This document shows, one piece after another, positions 23,436-50,700 of a DNA stretch of 64,000 nt (position 1 is the stretch's first letter; each line of letters opens with the position of its first letter). The DNA is taken from contig NC_087251.1 in the NCBI RefSeq assembly GCF_037042905.1, positions 8,248,001-8,312,000 of the forward strand. Direction: 5' to 3'. The stretch is from Lytechinus pictus (taxonomy: Eukaryota). Made by a program: the position numbers and the translations under genes. Under the pieces are notes generated by a model. It worked only from the letters and a program-made list of their open reading frames with translations. It had not been told where the DNA came from and ran no database searches.

Positions 23436-23929
23436 GGCCGTTGTAAAGAAGTGATGTCATAGAACAAATGTGAATGAAACATTTGAATTGAAACAATGAG
23501 ATTATATTGTTAATTTTAACCAAAAAGAAAATTCGAATTGAGAATGATTGACTGATATCTACTAGGATGTAGTTTGCTGACATACCAGCATGGTGAAATT
23601 CACACTATAATTGACAGGTGGCTTGATGTAATCAACATTATTGATTTGGAATGTTGGGCTTTAGGAAGAATGATGTTCATTACAGGAAGGTAGATTTCAG
23701 TAATGTACATCATTCCTTTCTCAGTCAGTCAACCCTTTGAACTTGCTTTATGCTAGTTTGTAATTTATTTGCAAATATGATACTACATTTGAATTTCCAT
23801 TTTCCTTCTCTCAACACAACATACAATACCTCTTTATTTCATCTTTAACATACTCTGGGTAACTGGATTATTAATTTTCAAAGGTTGGTAGCTCTGTTTT
23901 AACAATATACAAATAGCGAATAGGTATGA

Positions 23930-26900
23930 TAGTCGGGCAGCATATGTCATCTACTTCGACAAATTGGCTAAGTCTGATTTTTCACTTTTATGTGATTGGT
24001 GACATCACAAGGAACAACTTTCAACTTGGTGACAAATTTCTAATGGTCATCTTGACCATGTGAGGGGTCAAAATGTGGTCAATAGGGGTCTATTTTGGAA
24101 ATTGCCCCGATTGTGTCGAGTCATACATCAAATTGTTTGTTTTGTTATACTGAACAAGAAAGTGTACACAACCATATGCTCTTGACCTCCCGTTAGAAAG
24201 TTATGACCGGAAAGGTAAAAAGGGCAATGAACTTTCGAGAAATGGCAAATTACACTGAAATTGTTAAGAATGCTCTTTTCCGTGTTTTTACGCATGTGTG
24301 TACTTTTTTATTTTCGATTTTGATAATTCCATCGTTAGAAGTCCTTATCCAGAAGATATAAAGGGTCAAGACAAGGTCAGGGAAAGGTCAATAGCCACAA
24401 ACTTTCATTGGTAGCCAAAATACACTAAAAGCGATTAGAATCTTAGAAGTTGGTTCTTTATTTTGAAAAGACTCTTTCTAAGAAGACATCCATTAGATGT
24501 GCTCACTTCGGAACAAAATAGAGATACCGGTAGACGTTGAATACATTCAGTAGTATTGCAGGAATACTTTGAAACGACTTGACAAACCCTAATGCCCTTA
24601 AAATCGTATCATCTTCATGATGTTATAAGTGCAACCAGCTCTTTCCTAGTTTCTTGATTTAGGAATTCAATTCAAGTTCAATTCATTTTCCATTTACTAG
24701 TTTTTGATATGTAAAGAAGCATTTTATCCATTTGCTTTGTACAGAATATTTTAATCAATAGAAATGATTGTAATGTATTGGGGTATATATGTGTAATACT
24801 ATGTTAACAGAGTAAACACACCGATTGATCAGTGCTTCCAGCTCCTAAGAAAGATGCCTAACATCTTATTTGGATTAACTTGCGAATAAGATAATGAGGT
24901 TAGGATTGAGAATGATGTGATAAGTAGTGCTCCAATTGCTCCTTAATTAATTCTAATGTGACGTTATTTCTGACAATTTAGAGGCAACATCGTGCAGGTA
25001 TGCTCATTGTAATCAGTCCTGGGTGTCCATCATGCTGATGTGATATATTCTGACCATTACTCGATGTTTGGAGCCAAGAAGGACTACACATTTCTGATTA
25101 TGTGCTGCCATTAACATGGCTTGTACTATTTTATCCTCGGATTTTATCAAGTGTGTTTTTTTCCATGAGCACACAACATGAAACTAAACTTAATATAAGA
25201 TACAGATTTTGTGTTTTTTCTTTTTTCGTTCTTGTTTTTCCGTACTTGCTGAACTACCTGGATGTTGCTAGAAAGAATAATCACATATGTCCATATGTCG
25301 ACCACGGCCATACCGCAGCGGGGGGGGGGGGGGGGGGGGGGGGGGGCTGCCCTTAGAAATTGTGAAGACTTGCATTTTTTACTGAAAAATAAATATAATT
25401 GACCAAAAGTATGCACGAAATCCTTAAATTTCACTTTGCAAAATGCAAAAGGGCCCCAATGATAAGCTCAGAACAGCACATGCACCAGAAATGTGTAGTC
25501 CGTCTTGGCTCCAGAGATCGAGTAATGGTCAGAATATATCACATCAGCATAATGGACACCCATGAATACAATGAGCATGCCTGCACGATCGATGTTGCCT
25601 CTTTGCCAGAAATAATATAACCGTCACACATTAGAATTAATTTAGGAGCAATCGGAGCCCAACTTATCTTCAATCCTAACCTCATTATCTTATTCGCAGG
25701 TTAATCCAAATGAAATGTTAGGCATCTTTCTTAGGAGCTGGGAGCACTGATCAATTGATGTGTTTATTCTGTTAACATAGTATTATACTTATACCCCAAT
25801 ACATTACAATAATATATGTTAATTAAAATATTCTGTACAAAGCAAATGAAGAAAATACTTCTTTACATATCAAAGACTAGTAAATTGAAAATGAATTGAA
25901 CTTGAATTGAATTCCTAAATAAATAAAAAAACTCGGAAAGAGCTGGTTGCACTTATCAAACCATAAGATAAGATTTTAAGGGCATAAGGGTTTGTTAAGT
26001 CGTTTCAAAGTTTTAATGCAATACCATGATACCACACTGAATGTATTCAATGTCTATCTCTGTTTATCTATTTTGTTCCTAAATAAGCACATTTGACCCC
26101 TTTATATATAATGTTTTCTTAGATAGAGACTTTTCAAAATAAAGAACCCACAAAAAATTAGACTTCTAAAATTCTAACCGCTTTTAGTGTAATTTGGCTT
26201 CTAATAAGATAAGATTGATTTTATTTATACATGGTTAAAAAGCCCAAACAGTTCACAGACTGATTTCCATTGGTTCCGTGTGGAACATAATATACAATTG
26301 ACATAGTAAATATTTTAAAACCAGTGTTTAACGAACAATATATATGAAAAAATATGTTAACCTAAACAGAAGCATCAATGAAATATTACAAAGGAATCAT
26401 TGAAAGGTGAAGAGGAGGGGAGGAGAAGAAAAAAGGAAGAAGAAGAAGGGAAAAGTGAGGAGAAGAAAAAGACAACGAAGAAGATAACAGAAGAGGAAAA
26501 AAGAATAATAATGATAATAAGAAAAAGACGAAGAAATTATATACCGTTCTCAAAAACATCAATAACATACAACATGAAATATCTATCGGTAATTCGAACA
26601 ATGCGGTGCATACATGGTAATAGTAAATGTGAACATGAAAAAGTAAAATGTCAAAGTAAATACATGTTTCTATAATGGCCAATCGAGCACAAGAAAATGA
26701 ATACATGATTTATCAATGTTAAAAGCTAAACACATAAAAATGACTGGAAAATTTATGATAACTAAACATGCACTGAACATAATTATAAAGCATTAAAAAC
26801 TTGGTTAATACTGAAGCTTGCCATATATAAAGCAAAACATATAAACGATTGGAAAATAATACATGTACTGGGAACAGTAAATAGAAATTGTCTGTTGATG

Positions 26901-27668
26901 TTTGATGAAAACAATTAAACAGAATAATAGTCATTGTGATCCACATTCTAAAGATAATCTCTTAAGACCTGTCTTGAAATTGTGTTTCGTTCGTGCCGCT
27001 TGAATATTTGTGGGCAATGAGTTCCACATACTGGCGCCTCTACATAAACATGCGCTTTGCAGATTCAGTCTTTATTTGCATTATTTCCAAATTGAGATTC
27101 CCACTTCTTGTGTTATGTGATCTTTCTTTAAGGAAAAATCTATTGATTAGGTATGAAGGGGCTAAGTTATTGAGTATGTTTAACATCATTAGTGCAACAC
27201 TTTCTTTCCTTTTCTTTTCAAATTCATCCCAATGACAGTTTGTTGACCTTATGACCTTTCCCTGACCTTGTCTTGACCCTTTATATCTTCTGGATGAGGA
27301 CTTCTGACGATGGACTTATCAACATCGAAAATAAAAAAAGTACACACATGCATAAAACACAGAAAGTTCGTTGACATTTTGACCTTTCCGGTCATAACTT
27401 TTTAACGGGAGGTCAAGAGTATATGGTTGTGTACACTTTCTTGTTCAGTATAACAAAACAAACAATTTGATGTATGACTCGACACAATCGGGGCAATTTC
27501 AAAAACTGACCACATTTTGACCCCTCACATGGTCAAGATGACCATTAGAAATTTGTCACCAAGTTGAATGTTGTTCCTTGTGATGTCACCAATCACATAA
27601 AAGTGATAAATCAGACTAAGCCAATTTTTCAAAGTAGCCGGTAAATCATGACATATGCTGCCTGACTA
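23930..27668. mobile_element. Foldback / long-TIR non-autonomous DNA transposon (Academ-like termini)
   Basis: Left arm 23930-25107 is inversely repeated at 25474-~26204 plus ~27229-27668. Termini are TAGTC...GACTA with a 3-bp TSD TGA (23927-23929, 27669-27671). Spacer 25108-25473. The Academ assignment is inferred from termini and TSD only. Confidence 0.82.
26205..27228 (-). mobile_element. 5'-truncated L2/Crack-group LINE inserted in the right foldback arm
   Basis: Minus strand reads LNNLAPSYLINRF..HNTRSG..KTESAKRMF/RGASMWNSLPTNIQ..FKTGLK (ORF2 C-terminus), then 3'UTR, AATAAA and a simple-repeat tail. Absent from the left arm. Confidence 0.82.
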
Positions 27669-30389
27669 TGAGTGCAATGGTGCGAGATTTCGCATGAGGT
27701 GAAAGAAAGAATAGTGTTTCTTTCTTTCACCGAATGCGAAATCTAGCACCATGGCACGAATAAGAATAATCGCTATTTGTGTTGTACAACGCCTCAGAGT
27801 TTAGCGAAAGTATGAAAAAGAAGTCAGAGTTTTTCCCTGCAGTAATCTATGAAAAGGGAGCAAAAATATTGAAAGCAAAAAGCAAAACCCACAAGCACAC
27901 ATGATCTTGGGCAGCATTGCGCATTTAGCCAGCAGGCTATACGCGTATTCATTTTTACTAAGCGCAATGAATTAAATCGTATTGTGATGTCACCTCCTTA
28001 AGCCGTGCAACGGTACATTTTGGATGGTACGTCGTGTGTGCAACGGTACGAATGTTTGACATTCAGCCTCCCATTTGCTCGCGTACAACAAACTAAGTAG
28101 GCGTTGTACAATACATAATATCTGCTGCAATTCACTTACTGACCTTCAAAATCCAATTATTCTTACTTGATGAATGAAATTGTTCACTTTCCAGTACTTC
28201 AGAACTGTGAATTAGATTTTAATCATTATAAATGTGATAAAAGAACAAACAAGGGTTTGGAAGATTAAAAAATTAACCTATTCAAACATATTTATTTTAA
28301 AAAATTTGATTATGCCTCTCAAAAGGGGGAGGCACAGGCCAGATGTGCCCCCCCCCCCTTGATCCGCCACTGGTTGGTATAAAACAATCTTGCTCAGGTT
28401 ACTATTAAGTTCCTCTAAAATAAATTGGATTTAATTTGATTTTGCATCTTAACCTGTTAACCTTTTATTTTGATGTTCCTTTTGCTTCATTGCTCGTACA
28501 TTACTTTCATCTGTGTAGAAACTTTAACCATATTGTTTATACTTGATAATACTATTTTTATGAAGTCTGATATCAATGGTATTCATGAAGGGGGATGAAA
28601 ACTCCATTAAGATATGAATGAATTGTATAACTGATATAATTTTATATTTCTGGTCACAGCTTTCAATGTACTCTATTGTTTTTTACTGTGATATATAAGT
28701 TTTCTGTTAAAAAAATTATATGTATTTGGACCCAATTACCTTCTTATACTGAGTTTTCACTGCAAATGAAAACATCATATAATGAATGTATAAAGTGCAA
28801 TCTAAAATAAATCATGATATTGATAAATATAACATGTTGTCTTATTTCATTATTTATTATGTAAACAAATTTGTTTGTTTTTCTCTGTCATTTTAGTAGT
28901 TACCATTTGACAAAACTGTTATTGTCACAAAGGTTATGTTATTTAGTATGTTCTCATATCATCATTTGCATGAAATTTCTTTAAATACTTACCAAACATA
29001 TTCAACACATTCATATTTTAAATGTCTTTTATCAGGAAGAAGACAAATTAATTTACAATCTATTTCAGAAAAAAAATTCTCTCTTAAAAATGTATTCATC
29101 AAATGCATAATATCCCATGATAACATTCCCTAAATTATACCCCACCCATAAAGTAAGAAGGAAAGAAAGAGAGAAAAGGAAAGAAAGAGAGAGAAAAAAA
29201 AGAAATAAAGGAAAAATGAAGAGAACAAAAAAGGACAGAAAATCAGTAGGTTTAAAACTGTGGCAGGTAGAGGGGAGAAAGAGGATGGTGAGTGAGAAAA
29301 GAGAATGAAAAATTTAAATTATTAGAGGGAGAAATGCTTTCCACACAATGTCCAGATCTCCTTCGGGTGCATTAGATCATTGGTGAGTGGTAGGAGAAGA
29401 AAGAAATAAAAGGGGGAAGTGGAGGAGAAGGGAAAATAACATAGAGATGTATCATTAATTTGGTTTTCTCTGGGAAATCATTACTGAATTTCTTATGATA
29501 AAAACAAACAAACATCCATTGTTTCAAACTGTTTATATTTTGAAGTATTAAAAGTCATGTTGAAACCTGCATGATTCTTGATTCTCTAGCTTCATTCTTC
29601 TCCTTGATAGATCTCTTCTTTAGTCTCTTTATTTCTTCTCTATCGAGGCCTCTAGAATCTAGATCATGTTCTCCATTGATTTCCTCTTCTCATGGGCCTC
29701 ATGTCCTCCCTTAATTCTTTTACTTTATCTCATCTCTCTAAGTTCTCGTTTACTGTCTTATTTCTTGCCCTTCTCCTTTCTGAGCATATCTTCATTTATC
29801 CTACTTTACAAATAGCAGTACCCTATAGGGGATCGGGGGCTTCCAACGGGGGGGGGGGGGGGGGGGGGGGGTGACCTTCTTTCTTCTTAATTGTTTGGTT
29901 TACTAGCCAAGAATAAATGACTTGCCATTGCTTCTTGGAGTTTTTTTTCTTTGAAAGGATGAATATGGCTTCTTTCCCTTCTTTCTTTTTTTCTGTTCTA
30001 TATTCGATTTTCTTTTCCTCTACTTTTCTTTTTTCTTCTTTCCTTTTTGAAATATTTTTTTGAGGTTTCTTTTCTGTTACTTATTCTTTCTTTTTTGTTT
30101 GTCTTCCCCCCTTTTTCGTTTCTTTTTCGATCCTTTTCTTTCCCTCCGCTCTTTTTTTTTTTCTTTAAATCCTTTTCTTCTCTTTTCTTTTCAGTCATTC
30201 TGAAAGGTAGGAAGATAGCCTTTGCCGTGGAAATTGACTATTTCATACTATAAGTTTGCCCCGGTACAAAAATATATTTTCTCTCGATTCGAGCCATTTT
30301 TTTTAACATAATTAAATTATTTTAGATTAAAAAAAAAAAAATTGTTATTTCATATCCTTTATATATGAAAGGATAGATTGTATACTCAT

Positions 30390-33600: not shown

Positions 33601-36600
33601 GACAACCTGCAGAAAAAGTGTACTCTTTAACTTGATAGAAATTATGAAAGACAGAAAGAAAAGTAAGAAAGAGGTATTATACCCATGATGTGTAATTTAC
33701 AGCCTCGTAACGGCCGGCCCGACCCCGAAAGGAAACAAGAAAAAGGTGAGGGAAGAATTGGAAAATAGACTTTATACAAAAAATTTCGCTCGCGCTTCGC
33801 GCTCGCATTGCCTGTGTAATGAATCCCATTCAAGAGGATTAAATGGCACTTATATATCCAGTTCTGAAATCAATTTGCACACAATATTTTAGCTCGCACA
33901 TCAAGCTTTCGTTATTTTGTTTGATTTACACAAATTGTTAGTCTATATCACAATTTTCAGCTCGCGCTGCGCGCTCGCATTGTTTGATTTGTGAGTTACC
34001 TATCCTCTTTGGAAATTCTTACCGAAATTTGTCAAAATCTTCTTTTATCATGTCAGTATATCAAAAAATTAAGCTCGTGCTTCGCGCTCGCATTTAATTG
34101 TTTGAGACACACAGCTTTGTTCTTTATTAAAATAAAAACGCGCTTAGACTGTCCAGATTTCAGGTCGGAATATCAAAAATTTTGAGCTCGCGCTTCGCAC
34201 TCTCATTATTTAATTGGTGATACTTGTAATCCTCTTCATTTATCACTAAAAAAAGTCCTAATTGAATCCTCTTTTCACGTTACTATAATAAAATTTCGAC
34301 TCGCGCTTCGCGTTCGCATTGTTTAGTTGGATAACTTATCTTTTTTCATGATTATAAAATATCCTCAGAACCTTCAGGTCTAAGGACATAAAATATCAAA
34401 GAATATGAGCTCGCGCTTCGCGCTCGCATTATATATTAAGACCACATGAGATACCTTAACTTGTTTATAACAATAAAAACTTACATATACTTAAAACTTC
34501 AGTCTTTAGTTAGGACTACCCCCTGAAAAACCAACAAAAAATCTTATTATATAGCGGCCAATCGAGAAAAATGTTGATGAAAATATTTTTCGCCCCCCCC
34601 CCTATTGGCGAAAGCTGGATCTGCCCCTGACTCCCATGGGTGAAAAAATACATATGTAGCACTGTGACTATTTGAATAAATCCAAAGATTGTTGAATTTA
34701 ATGAGTGTATGTCATTCACAACATTTATAGCCTACTTTTTTAAGCACTGGATAAAAGTTGCATGAAATAACTTACCTTTTTATTTGCTTCAGTAACATAT
34801 TGAGTCAGAATTAATATATGGGGAATTACAAGTGGAGTTCTTTGTGCTATTACTTAAGAATATGTATGACAATGATTATATTTCCCAAAATACCTGTCAA
34901 ATACAAACTTTCTATCTTTTTAATGAAATGGTGATGACTCCTTTAAAAAAATCATTCAAACATGCACACCCTTGTTGGTCATGTTATGACAGTTACCACA
35001 ACTACGGTATAGGTTATATTCAAATTGTAAATTCACACATTAAGATGAACTATTAAAGGTAACACAAAGAGATGTGAAGTAAGTTTATAGTCAACATTTC
35101 TTCAACAACCTTGTCCTAAATGCTTTGTGTATTGATAGGTATGGGTGGCGATGAAGATGAAGCAGATTCTGATGAAGAAAATCCCTTTGCTGTGATAGAA
35201 ACCCAAGAAGAGAGAGAAGCTGCTTATATCAAGGATCCTAAGAAGACACTTAGGGGATTCTTTGAAAGAGAAGGTATGAGGTCTAAAGATCTAAATCAAC
35301 TAGTCGGGATATTGTCTAACCTGCCAGATGCCAGTTGCTGTCTTTTAAGAGTTTAATGTGAATTAAAATTAAATGTAAATTCCCTGTGCTAGCAATCATA
35401 TGAGCATGTTAGTAAGATGTTACCTACTGCAAATTCATCTCTTAGCTTAATTATATTTAAATACCATATTTTCATCAGCATTTACAGTATATGTCTAAAG
35501 TCAACTTCATATTTATCTCTGTGTAAACTATCCTCTAGAAGGCATGTATTTGATGACCCTCTCAATTATTTGAAGAGTTGTCTAATATGATATCAATGGC
35601 AACCTTGAGATGAAAGGCTCCTTATCAAGGCAACATATGCAACATAAGTTTATACTGGCTATTTTGATGCAATTCATCCCAGAATATTTTTGTTTGAATG
35701 GCAGACACTAAGTATAGTTTGCCAACTTGCTATAACATGTTGGATAAAACATTGATTATTCTTATGCACATAAGTACAGGAATATTTTGAATCTTTGCAT
35801 TGCTTAATGTGTGGTAGTATCATTATTCCACTTTACTTTTGATTTCTATAAAAAACATGAGTATTATTACCCGTACTTTTTTCCCTTTCTTTCTTAGATG
35901 TTGAGTTAGAATATGTAGTAGATGAAAAAGGTAGTGGCTTCAACCATCAGTATGTTTGCAGAGTGCAGTAAGTTACATGATATTTTTAAATTTGAGTTCA
36001 GTGTTTTTTCTGTCATTCATGCTTTCTTGGATTTATTGAAAGCAACGTTCTCGCTACCACGTGTCACGGTTGGCGGGCGCCGCCAACCCTGAAAATTTTC
36101 AGGGCAAATCCGCCAACCGTGAACTTCCCCGACAACCGTGGCCGACAACTGTAAAGCAGGGAAAGCAGGCCTAGATCTACACAAAAACTGAATAATATAT
36201 TTAAAAAATAATCTGCTTTTCAGATCCTAAAATAAACCTGTCGATTATTTCGTTCACGATTTCTTCCCAGGATTTCTGTGACTCACTCACTGTACTACTA
36301 GTGCGCTATATACGATACGACCTCGACTCGAGGCCCAATCTCTTTTGTGGGAAGCGCGAAGATGTTTACCTCGCATTTGCGTATCGCATTGCTCACATTA
36401 TTTACATCTTTAAAATGGTAGTAAATACGCTCAAAAACAAGTGAGGGGAGAGGGGTATCGTGGGTTACTGGCTTGGGCAATGTAATTTAGATTATTACGA
36501 ATTTCAGTTGATATTGTCACTTATTATGTCAAAAATAAAGTGTGTCAAAATTACTATCAAAATTCGATCGAAATATAGTTTCATCTCGTCCCAGGCCCCA

Positions 36601-39600
36601 GCCTTTATAGCTACATCTACATGAATTCATTAAATGCATTTCTGATGACACTGCCGTAGAGCGAATTGAGAAAACTATTCAATGATCACGTTAATAATGA
36701 CAAAGCCAATGGAATGGATTGATATAATGTGCGACTCATTTACTTACATCAAAATGATTTATTCACATTTAAATTCCGATTTTACTCCATTATTTCCAAA
36801 GTCTTGATCTCTACATCGATCTTTTGAAACTGTTGATTAATTTCGCGACGGCGTGTCTACCAAGTTCTGTGCCACTGCACTTGCGCTCGCAAAACGGTCA
36901 CATTCATAATACAAATCGCACATGGCATCAAAATCCTTGATCCGGCCGGGGATCCGATAGTCTTCCAAAATTAGATGGGATCCAAAACTAATTTAATTTG
37001 ATTTTTGTCATATATTCATTGAATCTGTTATAATTTTCATAATTAATAATCGATCTTTATTAATATTATTCACATTTTGTATCATTACGACTCATTTTTT
37101 AATGTGAGTTATACGTACAGTGTATTTTCATTTGTATTGTTCTTTATTACTCTTTGCCTGCCAATTAAATAATGAGCGCACCTGTCACGGGCCTGAGAAG
37201 TGTTTTTAGTCATCACAGTGAATGCTTTATGAATTTGTTGTACAATTGCTTAACTACGATTTAAAATAAAATATCATTTGAAATCAATTTGTGTAAAGGA
37301 AAAAAAGAGAATAATGGGGGGTGGCCGTGAGCAATGTAGATGAAAATGATGGGATGTTTGTGACTTTGTGGGGAGGGGATTGTTCGTAGCTAATGAAATT
37401 GATATTCATTTATGGATGTGTCTACTGTGATTGTGGCTGCATAATCTTTATGGCGATTGGAAAATCCACCTTGGGTCGGGAGGGGTACGTGATTCAATAG
37501 ATTTCGATAGAAGTACACATTCAACAAAGTGGAATTGGAAATTCATTCACAGATATTCGTTTCAAGTACGAATTATTGAAGTTGATATGTGTGAATGTTT
37601 AAGAGGATATCGGATATGTATATCGTTTTTTCACGCCCACAATGAGTTGCTAGTATAATTTGAATATCGTTGGATGAATTTTTCAAGTTCACTTATGTCT
37701 TTATGTTTTTTTATATCGGAATTGTGCTTTTAATATATGAGTTATATCTTGACAACGTCGTTAGCCTAATTATACTGCGAGTGGATGATATTTATGAAAT
37801 GAGTTGGAATGTGAACGAGACGCCCCAAAGCCGGTGGCACGTGATCTAATTAGTATTCACTTTCTGGGTTGAGCCAATCATTGTGCCTGAAAACGGATTT
37901 CCCCAAATTCCCGCCCTTGGAATGTGTCCCACGTGTGTGACCTGTTAACCTGTTGTTTGATTGCGAATCAGCTGATTTCGTGACCTCAAAAACTCTTCAT
38001 GGTGTTTACGCTGGATGGGGGCTATAAAATTAAGAAGATCTTTCTCTTTTATTCATTTTTAATAAACTGTTCGTGATTTTCAAACTACACCTATAGTGAT
38101 ATTGTGATGAAATTTATTGAATCACGTACCTCGATCATCCCACTCATGGTGCAAGAAAATATTTTTTTAATTCACCAAAATATACATGTAAGAAAGATTA
38201 TTCGGCCGTCATCATCGGTAGAAGTACAGACACGTCTATAATGTATTCGCTTCGAATATTGACTTCTTCACCAATCCCACACACACGATCTCAACATCCC
38301 CTTGTCATTGTCCACGCCACGACCCCTCCCCTATCGCTCTCTCCCTTCGACCATCCTACAACCCCACCCCTCTTCCTCTCTTTCACACACGCTGTATTTG
38401 TAGGCCTACATAATGTATTATGTAAAAATAGAAATCTTGTTTCCTGTCAATTAACCTAAACTTTCCAAACATTTTAAATCGCAGTTAAGAACAGCAAATT
38501 CGTAATATTAGAGTATTATGAATGACTAAAAATATTTCTCACGCTCGTGATGAGCACAGCACATTAATTATTTTATAGGTGGGTAACGAACAATACAAAT
38601 GAACACAGCAATAATTGACAGTGATAAAAGAATCTCGATTGGAAATTATTAGTATAAACATCATCAACAGAAGTCTTATGGGAGTTATAGTTTCAGTGAG
38701 TATCGAATAAACCAAACAAAAAACCATGCAAATTATATAAGTTGGGGACCCCGTCTCATGAATACCGATGCCCATTATTTGGAAGCCTCGGAAGAAAACT
38801 TCCGAGGCTTCCAAATAGTACCTCGGTCACATTTGCTCTACGGCGAGTCGAAAACAGCCGTTTTATTCATTTTTATTCAAACCACCTATATTCAGCTGGT
38901 ACAAAAAATGTTAAAACGGCTGTTTTCGACTCGCCATACGGCCGCCGTAGAACAAATGTGCTCGAGGTATGAAGTCGGAACAATCTTTGGATTTAGTAAG
39001 GGCGTGACGCAGCGCAAGCTCAAAGGGCTACGCAACATGCGGTCCGTAGATGCAGTCGGTCATTGACATAAGAAACAACACGCATTCACAAAATTAATCG
39101 CACTTTCTAAGGATGTAGCGATATCGATCTGAACATTGGAAACTATATGGAGTTAATTTATCGATGTGAATAATCTATAATATAAACTGTAAGTATAAAA
39201 TGAGATTGACTTCAATTTTTAAGTTATCAGTAATTGCGTTTCTGCTTCAATCGCAATTCGCGCAACCGTTGCGGCTGTGTGGCCGGAGAAGCATTAAATA
39301 GACATAAAATGTGGTGCATTTAGCAGCAATCTAAGCTCGTCGATATTGATATTTTCGATAGCTACCGCGCTTTGCGCGGGAGGGGGGACACCCCCCTCCC
39401 GAACCCTCCCCCCGTGCGTGCTTCGCACGCACCGAGGCCGCTGCGCGGTACCTGCATGTTATGCTTCAGTCGGAGGTCACATGGTAAGGTCAAAGGTCAT
39501 TTTCAGGTCAATGTTAAAGCTTACATGCAAGACTTTCTTATGACACCTAACTCCGCAACCGTAAGTCACTTTTCAACCAAACTTGTATGGTAGATGGACT

Positions 39601-41764
39601 TTGGGGACCTGCATGTTAGGCTGCAGTCAGAGGTCACCTTGTAAGGTCAAAGGTCATTTTCAGGTCAACGTTAAAGTTTACTTGCAAGACTCTTATGACA
39701 CCTAACTCCGCAACCGTTAGTCGCTTTTCAACCGAACGGCTGCAGTCAGAGGTCACATTGTAAGGTCAAAGGTCATTTTCAGGTCAACGTTAATGTTTAC
39801 ATGCAAGACTCTCTTATGACACCTAACTCCGCAACCGTAAGCCACTTTTCAACCAAACTTGGATGGTAGATTGACTTGGGAGACCTGCATGTTATGCTGC
39901 AGTCAGAGGTCACATGGTAAGGTCAAAGGTCATTTTCAGGTCAACGTTAATGTTTACATGCAAGACTCTCTTATGACACCTAACTCCGCAACCGTAAGTA
40001 ACTTTTCAACCAAACTTGTATGGTAGATGGACTTGGGGACCTGCATGTTAGGCTGTTGTCGGAGGTCACTTTGTAAGGTCAAAGGTCATTTTCAGGTCAA
40101 CGTTAATGTTTACATGCAAGACTCTCTTAAGATACCTAACTCCGCAACCGTAAGTCACTTTTCAACAAACTTGGATAGTAGATGTAGATGTACTTAGGCG
40201 ACCTGCATGTTATGCTGCAGTCAGAGATCACATGGTAAGATCAAAGGTCATTTTCAGGTCAACATTAAAGTTTACGTGCAAGGCCCTTATGACAAGTGTT
40301 ATTCCATCCCAGTCATTTCACAATGAAGTTTTGATACAATTCTGTTGCGTGCCCTCGCAAATCACGATATTTCTGGTTATTTTCATAAGTGGGCTAGACA
40401 CAAAATCGCTTTTGCCTTGTTTTCAAATCAATATCTTTATTTTTCAGGGACCTTGTAAAATTAAGTCTGTTCTATAATTTCTGTAAAATCCTCACACCTC
40501 CTGCATTCATTCATTCATTCATTTAGTAATACATAAAAGAGACTCTTTCTAATCACAAATATCATATGGATATAGCTTGCCCGACGACTAGGAGCCAACC
40601 GACCGTTTTTATTGTAAATGATAAAACAAATATCGAACTTGCAGAACACCGTTCTTGATAGATATTAGGAATATTATGCGACAAGTCAGACCAGTTGAAA
40701 AAACCAGAGGTAAAACTCGATGAGCAAAAACTCTGGAAAAACTGTGAGAGACTATTGCAAAACCCCCCTGTAAATTTGTTTATCAGATTTACCATAAAAT
40801 GTAAGAATTTGAACACTTTCACTTTGCAAATTTTAAATTCTGTAAATTTGTTGTGACGAAGAGAACAAGCTAGAATGATACGCCCAACGTATCCCTACCG
40901 CATATTATCCTTTCTTTACGCGCTCCAATGCACCAATGCACTTTTAACTACATTCCACGGAGGCTTCGAACCCCATTGACCATGCATTCCTGCAAAGTTT
41001 ACGAACAATAACGAAACAAACAACATTTACCTGCTATACAACCGTACCGCAGGTAAATAATAGTCTGTTCTATAATTTCTGTAAAATCCTCACACCTCCT
41101 ACATTCATTCATTCATTCATTTTAGTAATACATAAAAGAGACTCTTTCTAATCACAAATATCATATGGATATAGCTAGCCTGACGACTAGATTTCAAAGA
41201 AAGGGGGCAAAGCGGGGAGGGGAAAATATTAGGCAGTTAATTGTTTTCGTAACCTAGCAACATAAAACAGGTTGCGATATACATGTATATTATTATTATC
41301 ACATCAACCATGTATCAAAAATTTGATCTAAATCTTATTAGTATTATTTAGTTTTACTTATTATATCTTATTTGCATTTATACATTTAACTTTTGGAAAT
41401 ACCATTAGCACTGAATTGAATCCTTAAAACCAGATTACAAACGGCTCATATTTGGCAAATACTCCTTATTAGGATACCAATATTGTCAAGCTGAACTTTG
41501 AATTGTAAAACACATGACATTCAAAACACTTAACGATGAAACTGAATCCATTTTGTCAATGTTTCTATATGATTGACACTTGGCTATCGAGGCATTAAAG
41601 TAATGAATCTAATTTGATAATACCTAGTGGCCTTTCTTTCTGGATATCTAAAAACCATAAAACATACCTCCTAATAATTATGTTAAGAATGGTAAAATGC
41701 TTTCTTCTTTTTCTTCATTTTCTTTTTTGTCTGTTTTGACTTTATGATTATTACCTCTACTAAC

Positions 41765-41795
<31 letters not shown>

Positions 41796-44700
41796 TTATT
41801 ATTGATATGTAAAGAATCACAAATTTAACGATTTTGTAACCAACAATTTGTGGCTGATACTATCGTCAACGTATCCATCTTTTGCATTTTCACTCCTCCA
41901 TCGTCCATGCCTTTTCCATAATCTATCTGGCACGGATGCCCTGGCAGCTGCAGTAGCCCCACCGGCTCTTAGAGAATGCAACCCTAAGTTTGCTTGACCA
42001 CAAACTTCCGTCATCCTATCTACCACCATTTCCCGAGCTCTGGTGTAACTGATTTTCTTATTTTTCTTCACAAGACATCGTTTTTCTTTATTACAATAAC
42101 CAGGCTTGAACAGATAATGATCTGAACTTTCCGCAATACCAGCTAAATCAATGTATTTTCTTAGAACCTTGATAGGACAAGCACTAGAATGTCCTCTACT
42201 AATCAAAACTTCATTCCCTCTTCTATATTGATCAGTTTTACTCTTATGGACATTCACAGAAACAAAAGATTCGTTGAAAACAATATCTGAAACCTTAAGT
42301 GACTGCACCTCGTCAAATCTAAGAAATCCAGTATAGCTGATTACGATGAATGCAAGATCCCTCCAAACTAAAACATCTGACGAATCTTCGTACTTGTCGC
42401 ATAACTCAACTATCTGATCTGATGTTACGATGTCCTTCTTGATTACTGGTCTCGCATTCAGCCTTTTAGCACTTTCTAGAAGGTTTTTTACGAATGCATT
42501 GTCCGTAGGATCAGACATACCCGAGATGCTATGCGCCCATTTGATGCTGTAAAGTGCTGATTGGATAACGCTAACAGATGAACCCTTATCTATGAGGCTG
42601 GAGATATATAAGGCTACGTGAATGGGCTCCGCTGGCATGGCCTTACCCCCTTCTGAAGAAATAAAAATGCTCCCTTTTTTTAATGCTGCCATGTATTTTG
42701 AAGACGTACCTTCGCTCCTCGCTCCGATAAGTTGGCTTGCCATAACGCCCATCAGCTTCTCAAGATTCGGAGATTTCACACCAGTATCATGTAGCAGATC
42801 CGAGATAACCTCCTTGACATTTAGACCTGTATTCATGTAAAAGAAAAACATGCGTCTGATCTAGAATCGTACCTTCAAAGCAATTAGATTAAAATTACTT
42901 TTAACATTTCCAAAAATTCCATTTTTACCTTTGCCTTTGGTAACTGATTTTGAAGAGATAATCTCGTAATCTTTAATAAAGACTCGGAATCTTTCACCAT
43001 CCCAAATCTTAGGCCAAAAATAAGCTGACTTCCAGAAAGGCACCATAAGCGTGCCGCTTGCCTTTTCTCGCATTATCTTATCCATGACTTGAGCGATCAA
43101 ACGAGGTGGTGGAACCCACCAATTTAAGGACGTTCCACAGTTAAAGTGAAATCCATGTCATTTTCACCAAACTTTGCACATAGATACTTTAGAACCTTAA
43201 TATTCGAAATATGCAAAAATTAACATAGGTCCATGTGCTTGATTTTTTGCTATAGAGCTTCAAAGTTCACCCAAATTGATGTTCTTAAGAATTGCGCATT
43301 CAAAAGAATTTTGCATTTTTAGACCTCCCAAGATTACTACAATGAGTTTAAACCTCTATTACTCAGTCAGAATACATGAAAAAGTCATCAAATTTCGCAA
43401 GAGAGTTAATAATTGTATCGTTATAATGGAGAATCTATTCATAGTGCTATTTGTTTGCAATTTTAAGTTTAACAGCGCTCTCATTTCTTTAAAAAGGCGT
43501 AAACGATAACAAAATCCCAATCTAAAAAATGTAAAATTTCAGTAACAAACTACAAACGTACAATAAATGCTGCACTTTATTCAAAATCCATGTCATTTTC
43601 ACCAAAATTTGCAGAGTTGTAGAGGAAGGTATACCTAAGAGGTACAAACATTAAAAAATAGGGGTTCATGTGCTTGTTTTTAAACTATCAGCATTTTTAT
43701 TAGAGCAAATGTGCTTTTTAAAACACCAAAAATGCGCCGAATGCTTTGTATCTATGTGAAGAAAAAATAAAAACCACTCTACTATGTATTCAAACTTGGG
43801 GTAATATTCGTGATTCTTGGCAGCAATGCAGAGTAAAGTATTTTGAAATTGTAGAATTTTTTTTTTGAATGGTCCATGGAACAATTCCATTTTTTAGCTT
43901 CATGAAATGACGCATCGGATCTGCAGTTAAAGTGCAGAAGATGAGAAAAATCAGCTCAAACCCGCAGCTAATTAATCACCTGTTCATCCATTGTGACGTC
44001 AGCGCGCAGAGTGTAAACTATGCGCAGATCATAATGCGCACAAACATTACTGTGGAACGTCCTTAATGCACCATCCCAGTCTTGTGAGAATGCATCTATA
44101 CCACTTGTTCCAATACACCAAGCTCTAGAATTAAACATTTCACATTTAGTATTATAATTGCTAGCAAACCTATCCCACACGTGTGGCCCCCATCTCTCAT
44201 TCAAACTATAGAAATTTTTCCAACTGATATGCCAATCATCGCTATCGGTGACACGACTGAGTCTGTCTGCTTTTTGATTTTCTTTTCTGGGTATCCACAC
44301 GGGATATATCTTCATATTCTTCTCTTCACAAATGCTCTCTATTATCATAGCTTTCCTCTGAAGCTCAGGGTTTCCACTCCCTGCTTTCACAATTTTCACA
44401 GCATTCTTATTATCTGTATACCATCGTACATTGAGTCCTTCTACGTGAAATTTCAATGTCATGGCCATTCTCACAAAGGCCTCGAGCTCCCTCCAAGTCG
44501 AGCTCTGAATCTTCTCTGATTCTGACCACGTTCCCACCACTTCCATATCGTAACCATCTACATATCCACCATAACCAAAATCGGATGCGTCTGTGAATAC
44601 AGAGAAATGGCAATTTAAAGCTGACTGCATGGGCGCAATGTTTAAGCGATGTATATTACCCTTCCAGAACATTAGTTCTGCCATAACTTCTGGAGTAATT

Positions 44701-47700
44701 AGCACTGGAGCATTCCAACCTGCTCTTGTATTAATACAATGAAAACAATTCCTAGTTCTCAGTTGCGCTAAGGGACCCATTACTGTGTACATTGATGCAA
44801 TAATTCCCGTTATGCGGGCTAGAAATCTAACAGATACGACCGGGTTCAAATTGACTTTGGCTATAAAATCTGATATTGAAGTCTTAAGTTCTTCAACTCG
44901 TTTAACCGTTATGCTAACCTGAAAACTATGGAAGTCCCAGTCTAAGCCCAACCATTTAGCCTGTGGTTTTGGCTCCCAATCACATTTCTTGTTTGCCAAC
45001 AAGAAACCTAATTTTCTCAAGTCCAATTGCACATGCTCACTAAATGATTTTGCCTCTTCCAAACCATCAAGACCTGCTATGCCATCATCCAGAAACATTA
45101 TAGCCTTATGCCCTTGGTTTCGCCAATGAGATACTACTGGCCTCATTATCTTGGAGAATACATAACCCGCGGTCGACAAACCGAATGGCAGTACATTAAA
45201 GACGAAATATCGTCTCATCCCGTTGAAATTCCATGCAAAGCCCAGGTATTCTTTATGATCATCATGTATTTCGATATGGTGATATGCCGATTTTAAATCG
45301 TAAGTAAAAACAAAATCCCCTTTTTCGAAAACATCGCAAACAGCCTTGGCGTCCTCGTACTTAAATTTCTGCTTGAACAGATGCGGATTCACGTGCCTAC
45401 AATCGAGCACCATTCTTAATTTTGCCTTGTTCAGGCATGACAATTCTCCGCGTTTCCGCGGATTTCCGCGTTTTACTTTTTTGTTTGCTGAATTTCCATT
45501 TTTTTTACTCCTAAAACCCCCACCGGGGCGTTGCCCCTGGACCCCACCCGTTAGCAGCGAGCGGCAAGCCGCTCGCCCGGTGGGCTTCGCCCACCGTCTT
45601 GTCAACGACATTTCCAAAACCCTTTCAGCTTTTTTTTTCATACCCAATTTTCATGCCTGCTTGTTATTGGACACTGTTAGAGGATTAATCACTTTTGGTT
45701 TCTTTTTTAGCTCACTTACACACCCCTTTTTGATTAGCTTTCCGATTTCTTCCTCTACAAAAGATGAATTTTCGATTGCTGATCGATTATTTCTTAAATC
45801 TTCATTGTCAGGCATTGTCATGAAAGGTTATACATACCCCTTATCTAAAATAGATAGTATTTCAGAATTTGCACAGTCCTATTTCTTTCCAATAATCACT
45901 GCCTTTTTTCAACCTTCCTACCGGAGATGGACTTTTACATTCATCATTCTCAGTATTATCACACTCATGTATACTCTCATCCTTGTGAGCCCGATTACAT
46001 AAATAATGAGAAATATCACTTAGCTTGTTAAATTGACTTGACACGGGACTGGCATAACTTGATCCGGTTTCCTTGCATTCTGCCCTCCAATGACCAGGTT
46101 TGCCGCACGAGAAACATGCTCCGGGTTTCTTCCCCGAAAATGGCGAGGCGTTGACAACAAAGGCGGATCCTGAAGAAGAAGTGCTGTTCTGCTGATTAGC
46201 ACCAAAATAGGGACGATATGGGGAGAATCGGGACACTCTTTTTCTGAAGAAGCTTTCCCGCCTTTTTCTTTCTTTGGGCCCTAGCTTCAGCTCTCATGAT
46301 CCGCTTCTCGTCATCTGAATCGTCGGCCAAATCGTTTCTCACGTACTCGTCTACCGTAGTCCATCCGCCTTCAGAACTGTCCGCAAGCTTGATTATCTTT
46401 TGCCTGTACTCAATTAACTCCATACCTTCAGCTAGTTTTGATCTTCTCCTTTGGCTCCGTCATGTTCTTCACTCAGTAGGACGTCAGCTTGCTTGATTTT
46501 CCTCAACACCTTCGAATTTAGCTTGTATTGTTCCTCGTTACCCCTACGTCGGATATTGAACTCGTCTTTGCTTACTTCCTCTATTTTGGCTATTTGTATG
46601 TCGCTGAGGTCACGCTGGTTTTCGTTTATCTTCTGTTGGAAACTGCCCAGCTTTGAATATATTAGCTTATCAAGCTGGTTTAAGAGCCCAGCCTGGCTTT
46701 CTTTTATTTTTATTTCGACGAAATTCGCAACTGCGGACGGCTCCATAATGTCGTGTCGTGACGAAGAGAACAAGCTAGAATGATACGCCCAACGTATCCT
46801 TACCGCATATTATCCTTTCTTTCCGCGCTCCAATGCACCAATGCACTTTTAAAGGTCAAGTCCACCCCATGAAAATGCTGACTTGAATAAATAGAGAAAA
46901 ATCAAACTAGCATAGTGCTGAAAATTTCATCAAAATCGGATGTAAAATAAGAAAGTTATGACATTTTAAAGTTTCGCTTATTTTTCACAAAACAGTGATA
47001 TGCACAACTAGGTGAGTCAGTCGATGATGTCCATCACTCACTATTTCTTTTGTTTTTTATTGTTTGAATTATACAATATTTCATTTTTTTGAGATTTGAC
47101 AATAAGGACCAACTTGACTGAACCATATAGTATTAAACAATGCTAATGCCACATGTTTAAGGAGGAATTAATCGTTGTATCACTTGACAACGAGGAGAAA
47201 ATTAGAATATTTCATATTTGACATAATGAAATACAAAAGAAATAGTGAGTGGATGACGTCATAGTCTCCTAAATTTGCATACCAGCCAGGATGTGCATAT
47301 AACTGTTTTGTGAAATTCAGCAAAACTTTAAAATGTCATAACTTCCTTATTTTACATCCGATTTTGATGAAATTTTCAGTGTTATGCTTGTTGGATTTTT
47401 CTCTTTTTATTCAAATCAACTTTTTATTGGGGTGGACTTGTCCTTTAACTACATTCCACGGAGGCTTCGAACCCCATTGACCTTGCATTCCTGCAAAGTT
47501 TACGAACATTAACGAAACAAACAACATTTACCTGCTATACAACCGTACCGCAGGTAAATGATATTTTGTACAGCTCGTATTCAAATTTACAACAGAGATA
47601 AATCTTGGTCATGATAGTTATTTCATAACTTCAAATCTGGATTTTAAATTGGAATTGCATGTCTATGAACATCATTATACATCGTCAGTTTTGTCATGTT

Positions 47701-50700
47701 ATCTAAAGCTCCACAAATGTACATAACTAACTCTTAAAACTTGAACATGTTTCAGATTGCCTCTTGATGATTCAGTTGGTAATCCAATCTATGCAGAAGC
47801 AGCTGTATCAGGCAAGAAGAAAGAAGCTGTTGTAGCCTGTGCCTTAGAAGCTTGTCGTATCCTGGATGCTCATGGAGTACTCAGACAAGCTACACATGGT
47901 ATGATCACAAACATGCTTTTGCTTCTATCATTTTTGTCACTTCTTAGACCTACATGTACATGCATTCTATAAAATGTGACTGTAGATAAGTCATGATGGT
48001 TTTTTTCTGTGATTCAAATGAAGAAATTAAGATTTGAGGAAAAAGAAATGTTTTGTGTGACTTCACCTTAGTTTCTGAATTAAGGCTTGTACTCACTACT
48101 TCAGAGGCTGTGTCACATATGAAATTCATGTTGATTGTCAATGCAGATCTTGGCGTAGTGATCACAACTTGTTATAGACTTTATGGGCAATTATTGTCCT
48201 TCAATGCAATTATTCTCTACTAGCAGAGCCCGTGGAAATTCCACGGGTTTTGGGGGTGTGATTAAGTTAAATAGAATTTGTTGTAGATTGACATGTTTAT
48301 TCAAGATAGGGAAAGAAATAAACATTTGAATTTTTTAAGGGAAGGTTGTGGTTTGAAAGGAATGTGAAAGTTAGCTTTTTATTTGAAGTCGTAATTTGTT
48401 TTGAAAAATATATGATTGATTAAAGGTAATAGTGAGAAAGTAAAAAGTGATAAAGAGTATAGGATTATGGTTAATAAAAGAAATGCAGATAAGAGAATTA
48501 AAATGCTATTGAAGTTGGACGAATATGATATTTAGTTAAAGAAGCGTTTAAAAATATTGCCCCTCATTTTAACTATAAAAAGGGAAGTTTAAAAAGTAGT
48601 TGGTTTTGGAGGATTTATATTAACCCTTTTATTTACTTGTTCAACGTATTTCATTGCATTAGCTGATATTCATTTTATCGCCCCCGCTTTTTATTTTATT
48701 TTATTTTTTTACTGTTTTTTATTTCTATTGGTCCCAAAAAGTAAAGAAGGAAGAAAACATTTTAAAATGACGCAAGTTTATTTATTTTTTTATTATTATT
48801 TTTTTTTTGTCCCCTTTATCACTAAAAAAAAAGGATTAAAGAAAGAAAATAATAAGGAAGTATAAAGGAAAGGAAGGACGAAAGAAAAGAAAGAAGTGAA
48901 AAGTAAAGAAAGGATAAATAAAAGGGAAAAAGAAAGAACAAAGTGAAAGGAGTCAAAGGGAAAAAATGTAAAATAAAAGAAAAAGAAAAAAGTATGAAAG
49001 CAATGGGGAAAAAACAAAGAAGCCGTAGTTGCGATATGGACTGAAGTTAGCGATCATAATGATGTGAACCTGCCGCGTGGACACACAGGCGGCGCAGCGC
49101 AAACTGCCCCATCCTTCGCGAGGCAGGTTCACATTATTGTGATCGCTAACTTTAGTCCATATCGCAACTACGGCGAAGACGAAGTCCAACTGAGAATTCA
49201 AACGAAGGTGTCGATCGGCTGAAATTCAGGTTATGGATTGATTAGACATTTGGGAATAAAATTATTATATTGTGCCAAAATTAATTGGCGAAAATCACCC
49301 GGTGCGAAAGTGCATTTCAGTTGTGACAGAATGCCAAAATCTCATTTCACGTTCACTTTAAATTCTACACATGATTCAAATTAAGGCTCGCCATGTTTTA
49401 TATATATGTCCTTTTAAATGGTATTCGAATGTGGTTACGCCTTGTTTTTGTTTTCCACAGTAATTATTGCATGTAGGAACAGAAGTGAAATATTTGTTGT
49501 GAAGCACTGTGTGAATGTTGTGTGATCATGGAGCTATGGTGTGATGGTATTCTAATTAATTCATCATTTTTGTTATAAGACTGTAAACCTGGTGGATGTG
49601 AGGGAGTGGCCTGGATGAAAGGAAAGTGAAAATGTGTCCAATTACTGATTTGCATATGTGCATTCCCTACATTCCATGCAAAGAGTAAAGGAGAAGTCCA
49701 CCCCACCAAAAAATTAATTTGAATTTAAGGAAAAATAAAGTATTGCAGAAAATCTCATAAAACTATATGATTCAAAATTTAAAAAATTACTATTTTGACA
49801 TTGAGAAATTTGCCTAATTTTACAAAACAATTATATGCTCATCTTGGTCAATGTGCAAATTACAGAACCGATTATGTCACACACACTCTAATTTCTTGTG
49901 TATTTTTTTTTGTTTGATACATGTACATGACATGTGTATTTCATTTTAATTTTCTCATTTTCTTTAACAAATTTTGAGAGGGATTTTAATTCCTCCATTA
50001 ACATTCGTAGTTTCCATGAATGTAACATTTTGTGATTCGATGAAGAGTTTTTATATCAAATTTGCTAAAATTGATATAATAAAATGCAACCAAAATTTAG
50101 AAAGTAATGTGATGTGAGTGACATAATCAACTCTATTTGCATACCATTGTTTTGTGTATATAACTGTTTTGTGTTAAAAAAGGGAAATTTCTCTATTAAT
50201 TTAAAGATTTTTTGTGCACTTGACCTTTAACTCACTTCCCTTCCCACCCTTGCCCAAGTAAGTGTAATCAAGAACTTGAAAATCATAAGTGATTAAGAAG
50301 AAGTAAGATTTAATCATAGTTATTAATAGCTCCATGATTTAATAATACAGGCCTAAATAGAAATTCACATGAAAGTAAAAAGAGAATAAAGCTGGGTAGG
50401 AACGGGGAAGGAATATGATTTAAAGAAAAAGCAAAAATATATCCACACCACCCCCCGAAAAAAAAATAGAAAAAAAACACGTTTTGGCGGGATCGATCCA
50501 GGGTCCCTGCACACGTGAAAACACTGTGCTAACGTAAGTCGCCACAGATCGCTTTCACAACACAATTGGGTTTTTAATGCTATATGAAATTTTGTAAGTC
50601 TGTGCGCCGCTGTTGACCAATCAGAACGCGGCGTTCGGAGCTAGACGACCCACGTGACGCGTCTGTCGTCTGTCATGGTCGAATGTCGGGCTACAACACA

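Follow-up and report, generated by a model that had tools for sequence, protein, structure and literature searches.

How a retrotransposon that carries a tyrosine recombinase (YR) makes and packages that enzyme, and in what form its cDNA enters the chromosome, is the question raised by an element in the window, the whole stretch of 64,000 nucleotides of Lytechinus pictus DNA analysed here. The circle model of integration in the order DIRS is largely untested, and the cDNA intermediate of DIRS-1 is experimentally single-stranded (PMC7192593). Taken alone, the copy in the window is an unremarkable inactivated transposon whose class is known and rare. Comparison with its relatives leads us, on balance, to favour an account in which the family would translate a Gag-RT-RNase H-MT polyprotein (RT, reverse transcriptase; MT, methyltransferase) from the full-length RNA and, by splicing, a separate mRNA for a Gag-YR fusion, and would integrate as a folded strand at the junction of its repeats B and A.

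The element occupies 7.1 kb of the minus strand (40464–47563), or about 5.33 kb once three nested insertions are removed, and is ordered 5′ to 3′ as A1, gag-CCHC, RT, RNase H, MT, YR, B1-A2, spacer and B2. Its features, followed by the neighbouring exons of the host gene, are:

47449–47563, minus strand: A1 repeat, 5′ part, opening with the inner hairpin at 47526–47559
46853–47444, no strand assigned: nested non-autonomous element with terminal inverted repeats (TIR), flanked by a TTAA target-site duplication (TSD), of very high copy number, putatively Kolobok-like
46754–46852, minus strand: A1 repeat, 3′ part
42861–46746, minus strand: the gag-RT-RNase H-MT region, one frame in the family but disrupted in this copy by 3 frameshifts, 1 stop and 2 insertions
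46426–46746, minus strand: N-terminal Gag exon predicted for the Gag-YR mRNA (ATG 46746; donor GT 46425–46424; frameshift near 46444)
46069–46119, minus strand: Gag CCHC zinc knuckle (zf-CCHC, PF00098, E 2.7e-6)
45432–45659, no strand assigned: nested TIR element of 228 bp where RT begins, with a 6-bp TSD
44943–45335, minus strand: reverse transcriptase core (RVT_1, E 8e-17)
44337–44609, minus strand: RNase H (RT_RNaseH, E 7e-4, below cut-off)
44067–44243, minus strand: MT domain, 5′ piece (Dam, E 0.012, below cut-off)
43128–44062, no strand assigned: nested 935-bp TIR element inside MT, with a TTAA TSD
42864–43127, minus strand: MT domain, 3′ piece, whose motif IV reads VPPP
41817–42860, minus strand: open tyrosine recombinase ORF (Phage_integrase, E 9e-9; predicted acceptor AG 42828–42827)
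41063–41190, minus strand: B1 repeat
41015–41069, minus strand: predicted two-stem fold of the B1-A2 junction
40849–41062, minus strand: A2 repeat
40592–40848, minus strand: spacer of 257 nt between A2 and B2
40464–40591, minus strand: B2 repeat, closing the element on its 3′ side
35898–35967, plus strand: kanadaptin exon upstream of the element
47756–47899, plus strand: kanadaptin exon downstream of the element

The sequence-only reading had reported split direct repeats without a TSD, their copies about 2–3% diverged, and the counts bear this out: the A copies (46754–46852 plus 47449–47559 against 40849–41060) show 5 mismatches in 210 nt, the B copies (40464–40591 against 41063–41190) show 3 mismatches and one internal indel in about 128 nt, and no TSD is found at the element ends. 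The gag-CCHC, RT, RNase H, Dam-like MT and open YR that it named all lie on the minus strand, the RNase H and MT matches falling below the cut-off, and the YR's catalytic residues (R, K, HxxR, W and Y) are all present. It had set the boundaries at 40464–47559; the 5′ end probably reaches about 47563, where public contig 10 of run X5 resumes. The terminal repeats are direct only, with no inverted terminal repeats (ITR) or internal complementary region (ICR) of DIRS1 type in the element; the long inverted repeats that were found are part of the nested insertions, not element termini.

Described beforehand as structurally complete, the copy does retain all its parts but is non-functional and almost certainly dead, since comparison with the sibling P0300 reveals frameshifts near 46444, 46232–46275 and 45875 and a stop at 45828–45830. 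The three nested insertions were recovered, each with its own TSD, as was the setting in a kanadaptin intron, antisense to the host gene: an FHA exon matches kanadaptin (4H87, E 7e-41), and the flanking exons run on the plus strand. Because the exon ending at 35273 and those at 35898–35967 and 47756–47899 join in frame, the host intron is placed at 35968–47755. The suggested comparison with an empty site succeeded in part: an allele without the element is present among public contigs, read except for 105 letters in the middle, but it is about 5% diverged and also lacks 36043–40463.

Less damaged relatives, which had been expected elsewhere, do exist. P0300 (XP_041483129, a Lytechinus variegatus RefSeq model) is 94% identical over Gag and RT, which it reads in one continuous frame before ending early in RT; P0301, an intact relative at 61% identity, is a Gag-RT-RH-MT protein of 902 aa, and both are annotated just as uncharacterized proteins. 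The X5 contigs skip two of the nested insertions exactly (joints 45425–45660 and 43123–44063). Gag and Pol form a single ORF in the clade of this element, and sea-urchin relatives of its YR are 55–61% identical to it; viral_contigs yielded no RT relatives and one marginal YR match, and no connection emerged to a gene-less split-repeat family of 8.9 kb in this genome.

Splice signals recurring among these relatives make it likely that the family produces its Gag-YR fusion from spliced RNA. The predicted donor in gag and the predicted acceptor at the start of YR are both in phase 1. All 15 gag matches have GGT as the Gly codon at the donor, as against 44% in RT (one of 16 rows, L083 1876, falls within RT and was excluded), and a looser search added GGT donors in L001, L018, L021, L022, L041, L057, L065 and L070, together with one non-GT case (L082) and three rows outside gag. 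With the non-retroelement YRs (L088, L089, L092–L094) left out, 26 of 41 loci place the acceptor in phase 1, the other phases having 10 and 4 and the control windows 0–7; in the L011 clade, five loci carry it in phase 0. Four proteins, P0429, P0422, P0378 and P0471 (460 aa), join Gag to YR exactly at the donor Gly, but these are gene models, three of them from the Pinctada and Ptychodera annotations, so that the predictor may have used the same splice sites. Gag proteins breaking at the donor form no clear peak (9 of 87), and RNA depth on the element body is 0 in X21 and 0–2.7 in X24, with no spliced read displayed.

The B1-A2 junction is predicted to fold into an outer stem, in which the end of B pairs with A, an internal loop, an inner stem of 10 bp and a loop of 14 nt. 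The fold has a z score of −4.2, none of 200 shuffles being as stable, and the covariation score of the named structure was reached by none of 500; pairing is 83% in the named register vs 33–58% in slid registers. Compensatory, two-sided changes affect 10 of 18 pairs among five close, hand-picked elements, and a model built from these five recovers held-out sites lying upstream of gag, namely those of L052, L033, L041, L049–L051 and L066 (E 5e-9 to 0.13). Two-stem patterns are common in AT-rich DNA, as judged from 222 background tiles, a background that replaces an earlier coding-region control (2 weak matches) which was too easy: a two-stem score of at least 13 is found in 18 of 31 families vs 46 of 222 tiles, and one of at least 17 in 10 of 31 vs 10 of 222. 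The pattern is absent in 13 families, several of which have no fold because the contig ends at B. Matches in L042 and L084 take flanking DNA as the outer arm, those in L025, L071 and L092 look spurious, and the 37 matches of the junction DNA pattern in viral_contigs, none with a hairpin, were taken as chance. No Rfam family was matched. Inverted protein-binding sites covary as well.

The positions at which copies end relate to this structure. In six families (L002; L004/L006/L053; L087; L090; the L018 group; the L057 group) the copy ends, as here, where the outer 5′ arm does, and in two (L011–L013; L042/L043) after the inner 3′ arm. The two positions are the two sides of one fold, and each coincides with a stem arm's 3′ end, which is where a YR that cuts a folded single strand would be expected to act. 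In the window, the fold model places the first base shared with the empty allele at 47563, matching X5 contig 10; a trinucleotide ATT core and a naive boundary, which predict 47556 and 47560, were rejected. Where a circular cDNA integrated by a YR was first supposed, a plain double-stranded circle is doubted, the junction fold pointing to a folded single strand.

In the model that we put forward, at a confidence just short of even, the family would integrate its cDNA through the predicted two-stem B-A hairpin, cut as folded single-stranded DNA. During reverse transcription the B1-A2 repeat would template a head-to-tail B-A joint, as in the published model, and the end of B would pair with A. 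The YR, riding into the particle on Gag, would cut 3′ of a stem arm, to one side of the fold or the other, and one strand would be exchanged with a target that is AT-rich and similar to the arms. Replication or repair by the host would complete the insertion, so that no TSD and hardly any shared sequence, or none, would remain. Taken together, the shared predicted hairpin and splice sites suggest that the family likely inserts in this folded form, with its recombinase fused to Gag.

The hairpin might instead act in the transcript, as an RNA signal at its B1-A2 joint for priming, template switching or packaging, with a double-stranded circle as the integrating form. The transcript contains the full fold at B1-A2, the loop sequence is conserved, and the sense fold is the more stable in 19 of 19 cases with RNA parameters and in 17 of 19 with DNA parameters; wobbles also favour the sense strand (G.T 8, A.C 0, where composition alone predicts 0.65 per case), a bias that an RNA signal would explain no less well than first-strand cDNA. 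Such a signal accounts neither for the coincidence of genomic ends with arm ends to both sides of the fold nor for a crossover that shares about one base and has a spacer without a match, and we regard it as unlikely. The textbook model, which reads the inverted repeat as two YR binding sites on a double-stranded circle and the folding as incidental, appears improbable, although the YR is Cre-like (E 8e-13), short palindromes lie at the crossover in some junctions (L018, L043) and circle integration has been published (accessible portions of PMC7192593 and PMC3266345). Crossovers lie outside the inner repeat, mismatches are strand-biased, and the unpaired internal loop is kept. Unlike a fixed core of 6–8 bp, the arms of this inner repeat lie 13–30 nt apart at variable distances.

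Folded-strand integration is proposed for an element whose class is itself very probably PAT-like, as initially labelled. The combination of RT and tyrosine recombinase without DDE integrase, protease or TSD is that of the order DIRS, and the echinoderm form of Pat1 is matched by the A1-B1-A2-B2 split repeats, by an MT domain following RT and RNase H (a weak match in this copy, with an MTase fold in a relative), by the Gag zinc finger and by a co-oriented YR with the internal repeats downstream of it. A Ngaro or rearranged DIRS1-like element is very improbable: the repeat order of Ngaro is identical and the structural traits are homoplasious (PMC4157794, accessible text), and the PAT assignment is drawn from layout and domains, but Ngaro has no MT, whereas 35 of 39 relatives match PF05869, the ITR and ICR of DIRS1 are absent, and L011, L053, L070 and L090 have the same split repeats. 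Domestication of the open YR ORF by the host, to which its 347 open codons and a single difference in 76 conserved columns might point, is scarcely credible, as RT is conserved equally (2 of 89), the copy is young, an allele without it exists, no RNA covers the YR in X21 and the Gag exon that would feed it is frameshifted.

The MT, whose function had been called unresolved, now appears as a PCIF1-like domain with a non-canonical motif IV. In N6-adenine methyltransferases the catalytic motif IV is [DNSH]PP[YFW]; in place of it the relatives, like the window copy, carry V/C-P-P-P/V/I, the canonical form occurring in 0 of 106 (of 120 relatives, those in which the motif was found). The MT of a relative has PCIF1/CAPAM as its best structural match (E 8e-5, Z 12.3; PDB 6IRX–6IRZ), a likeness proposed in the accessible part of PMC4738411, and the MT profile matched no PDB sequence. 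It is probably a catalytically dead, RNA-binding domain of PCIF1 type, against which a 2026 preprint holds that eukaryotic DAM domains keep their pocket.

If the account is true, a eukaryotic retroelement would use folded single-stranded DNA recombination, and the order DIRS would gain a concrete att site: a 55-nt substrate with predicted cut positions, alongside splice sites that can be tested. There would also be a practical side to a compact Cre-like enzyme that, in animal cells, inserts folded single-stranded DNA and accepts loose AT-rich targets.

Among known systems, the closest in layout are the echinoderm-form Pat1-like elements (SpPat1 of Strongylocentrotus purpuratus and its Lottia and Nematostella relatives), which, compared by description, have in common with it the split repeats, a zinc finger in Gag, RT-RH-MT, a YR in the same orientation and internal repeats not placed between MT and YR; the accessible text of PMC4157794, from which the echinoderm-form repeat placement is deduced, gives Toc and Kangaroo a Gag without zinc finger, and the nematode form and Kangaroo internal repeats between MT and YR. 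The parts of the literature examined mention neither a single gag-pol frame nor a Gag-YR splice nor a junction fold for Pat1-like elements, and our searches found no prior mention of the latter two. DIRS-1 of Dictyostelium shares RT-RH-MT, a YR and the lack of a TSD, and differs in its inverted terminal repeats, internal complementary region and overlapping ORFs (PMC7192593, accessible portion). PCIF1/CAPAM, a cap-specific adenosine methyltransferase, resembles the MT in fold and differs in motif IV. Integron attC sites and CTX phage, as presented in the accessible part of PMC3458562, belong to bacterial DNA elements of demonstrated activity, whereas that of the PAT-like element is deduced, and no likeness in sequence is claimed; common to both in the model are a tyrosine recombinase whose substrate is a folded single strand, exchange of one strand and replicative resolution. 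The junction fold has the attC/CTX arrangement of two stems round an unpaired centre with the crossover at arm ends, a pattern whose background rate is that of the tiles. By this analogy we tentatively suggest that PAT-like retrotransposons of marine invertebrates could integrate as integron cassettes and CTX phage do, through an attC-like B-A fold, a spliced, Gag-tethered YR and a single strand exchange.

The tyrosine-recombinase (YR) retrotransposon in the kanadaptin intron is a real, dead element of a known class. It points to two mechanisms that can be tested and seem not to have been described before, a folded repeat junction and a Gag-YR splice. The sequence-only reading described it rightly, its parts, split direct repeats (A and B) and host intron all being recovered. 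The FHA exon of kanadaptin matches 4H87 (E 7e-41) and three exons of the gene join in frame, with the element antisense in intron 35968-47755, as that reading had it.

40464 to ~47563, minus strand: PAT-like element, A1-gag-RT-RNase H-MT-YR-B1-A2-257-nt spacer-B2
46853-47444: insertion in the element, terminal inverted repeats and TTAA duplication
43128-44062: insertion in the element, terminal inverted repeats and TTAA duplication
45432-45659: insertion in the element, terminal inverted repeats and 6 bp duplication

The A copies mismatch at 5/210 positions and the B copies show 3 differences and one internal indel over ~128 nt, in line with the proposed divergence of ~2-3%. The description 'structurally complete' holds for the parts, all of which are present, and not for the copy itself, which is dead: the reading frame shifts near 46444, 46232-46275 and 45875 relative to the 94% identical Lytechinus variegatus sibling XP_041483129 (P0300), and a stop lies at 45828-45830. 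The YR frame is still open, with catalytic residues equivalent to those of Cre, and since RT is conserved as well as YR, this requires no domestication.

The PAT-like label, with which every checkable feature agrees, was assigned from layout and domains. Among 81 RT-RH sequences that include no named references, the element falls in a clade with SH-like support of 0.994, whose whole proteins measure 893-981 aa and in which Gag and RT share one frame in 9/9 classifiable members. Classifiable members elsewhere mostly have separate frames, and the sister group holds both arrangements (P0023 fused, L026 separate). RT-RH relatives are 39-55% identical, those with names being molluscs and amphioxus, and models from Lytechinus pictus, Diadema and Strongylocentrotus are among the YR relatives, at 55-61%.

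Less damaged relatives exist, as a Lytechinus variegatus Gag match at 94% and as contigs of sequencing run X5 (depth ~177, 4-6% different from the window) that skip the RT and MT insertions. Taken with the YR relatives, the Gag match points to a Lytechinus-like sea urchin as the probable host. X5 depth, which does not equal copy number, is 176-255 on the element body and 26-33 on single-copy host sequence. For the suggested empty-site comparison, one X5 contig joins 36042 to 47563 through 105 intervening letters; this allele lacks the element and also 36043-40463. Run X1 contains contigs that match this allele exactly. On the element body, RNA depth came to 0 in X21, where 6% of the run was read, and to 0-2.7 in X24.

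The neighbouring 36043-40463, all of it missing from the X5 allele, is a 4.4-kb, high-copy, gene-less stack of other mobile elements sharing the intron, with nested inverted repeats (37127-38603) and a 157-nt tandem array (39433-40294). Spacer plus A repeat (40592-41046) reach X5 depths of 280-1330 against 176-255 for the body, and an X1 contig of depth 45 against 3 matches 40741-41046 before continuing into other sequence; non-autonomous or sister elements probably share A and spacer. The 627-nt YR-to-B1 region (41191-41816), far longer than in the relatives L001 and L002, has a lower X5 depth (54-116) and a 27-nt sense poly(A) starting 26 nt past the YR stop, and may represent either a fourth insertion or a poly(A) tail that was captured. 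Elsewhere in the window, ~9300-17700 carries plus-strand exons of another gene, a candidate NEMF/Rqc2, and non-coding 23929-25107 and 25474-27669 form long inverted repeats (~81% identity), probably a foldback or MITE family.

The B1-A2 joint (41015-41069) folds (z -4.2) into two stems, an outer one that pairs the end of B with A and an inner one of 10 bp, with a small internal loop between them. This fold is kept with other sequence in L001, L002, L036 and L081; across these and the window, changes are two-sided in 10/18 pairs, and 0/500 shuffles attained the covariation score. In L052, L033, L041, L049-L051 and L066, a model built from the five sequences recovered sites that had been kept out of it, all at the A1 position. 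Farther relatives have the same plan with a different loop, the inner stem covarying in 8/11 pairs, and for their outer stem no alignment was obtained. An automatic scan found the pattern no more than 500 nt from the YR stop in 18/31 families, 10 of them at score >=17; because background tiles of the window carry it too (46/222 and 10/222, respectively), the two-stem pattern alone amounts to enrichment, not proof.

The end positions count for more. In six families the ends of other copies lie where the outer 5' arm stops, and in two families they follow the inner 3' arm; L084 and L079 are cross-family cases of lesser weight. In L071 the end comes 10 nt early, in L019 the start is late, and L006 and L069 continue through T-rich flank. 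YRs cleave 3' of their binding arm, and the two positions are where such cutting would cleave a folded strand. B2 ends at the outer arm and A1 retains the spacer with one mismatch, which predicts that an empty allele should match from 47563, as the X5 allele does; other boundary readings predict 47560 or 47556. At the crossover, target and element have about one base in common, and the target is similar to both arms. By analogy with attC, a folded single-strand recombination site whose unmatched spacer blocks a second exchange (PMC3458562), the spacer left unmatched here would prevent a second strand exchange. A serious rival is that the fold acts in RNA: wobbles favour the sense strand (8 to 0, against an expected share of 0.65), the opposite of first-strand cDNA, which is antisense. 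In the clade of L011, L015, L016, L020 and L025, a sub-lineage that is wired differently, the YR acceptor is in phase 0, and L011 belongs to the second crossover class, with ends after the inner 3' arm.

For the predicted splice, a polypyrimidine-YAG acceptor stands in phase 1 at the YR start of 26/41 loci, the window included, against 10 and 4 loci in the other phases and 0-7 in control windows. A Gag glycine near residue 109 is conserved, its codon being GGT, in donor context, in 15/15 cases versus 44% in RT. Among the best 150 of 1869 matches to a Gag N-terminus profile, three proteins switch from Gag to YR exactly at this glycine; a fourth join, in a full-length 460-aa Ptychodera model, clusters with one of the three, and P0452 has its joint elsewhere. 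These proteins are gene models, not RNA proof. Gag-YR would bring the recombinase into the particle, a carrier role suggested by a Pol that has no integrase domain. Near Gag residue 95, L005:455-570 is an intron-like break and L036:390-1249 an 860-nt gap. In L083:1-9421 a relative is present twice, the copies being 99.8% identical and lying tail to tail in one long inverted repeat, either a real inverted dimer or an assembly artefact. PAT-like retrotransposon sequence that is catalogued under bacterial or archaeal MAGs (L081-L087, L090, L091, P0030, P0121, P0232, P0286) is most likely host DNA.

PF05869 is matched by 35/39 of the relatives' Dam-like methyltransferase (MT) domains. The predicted L033 structure (pLDDT 92.5) best matches PCIF1/CAPAM (Foldseek E 8e-5; Z 12.3, rmsd 3.5, 138 aligned; next-best Z 9.9), and motif IV, found in 106 of 120 proteins examined, is canonical in none. 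Both results agree with PMC4738411, which proposes a PCIF1-derived, likely inactive MT; a preprint (10.64898/2026.05.21.726589) argues for a pocket generally kept, yet found no activity in E. coli. The MT may serve in RNA binding.

The class and its occurrence in sea urchins are already published. The literature covered, with the Poulter reviews, Repbase and Dfam outside its scope, holds no junction fold or Gag-YR splice for PAT-like elements, and a prior mention of either is possible. In PMC4157794, PAT is defined by split repeats together with an MT and Pat1-like elements by a zinc finger in Gag, and the sea-urchin form SpPat1 places its internal repeats differently from the nematode form. 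PMC3266345, PMC6681497, PMC9210276, PMC2685390, PMC3783388 and PMC13465315 give Ngaro no MT and DIRS1 inverted repeats, and a review quoted in PMC13003380 proposes that Ngaro obtains its YR through frameshifting instead.
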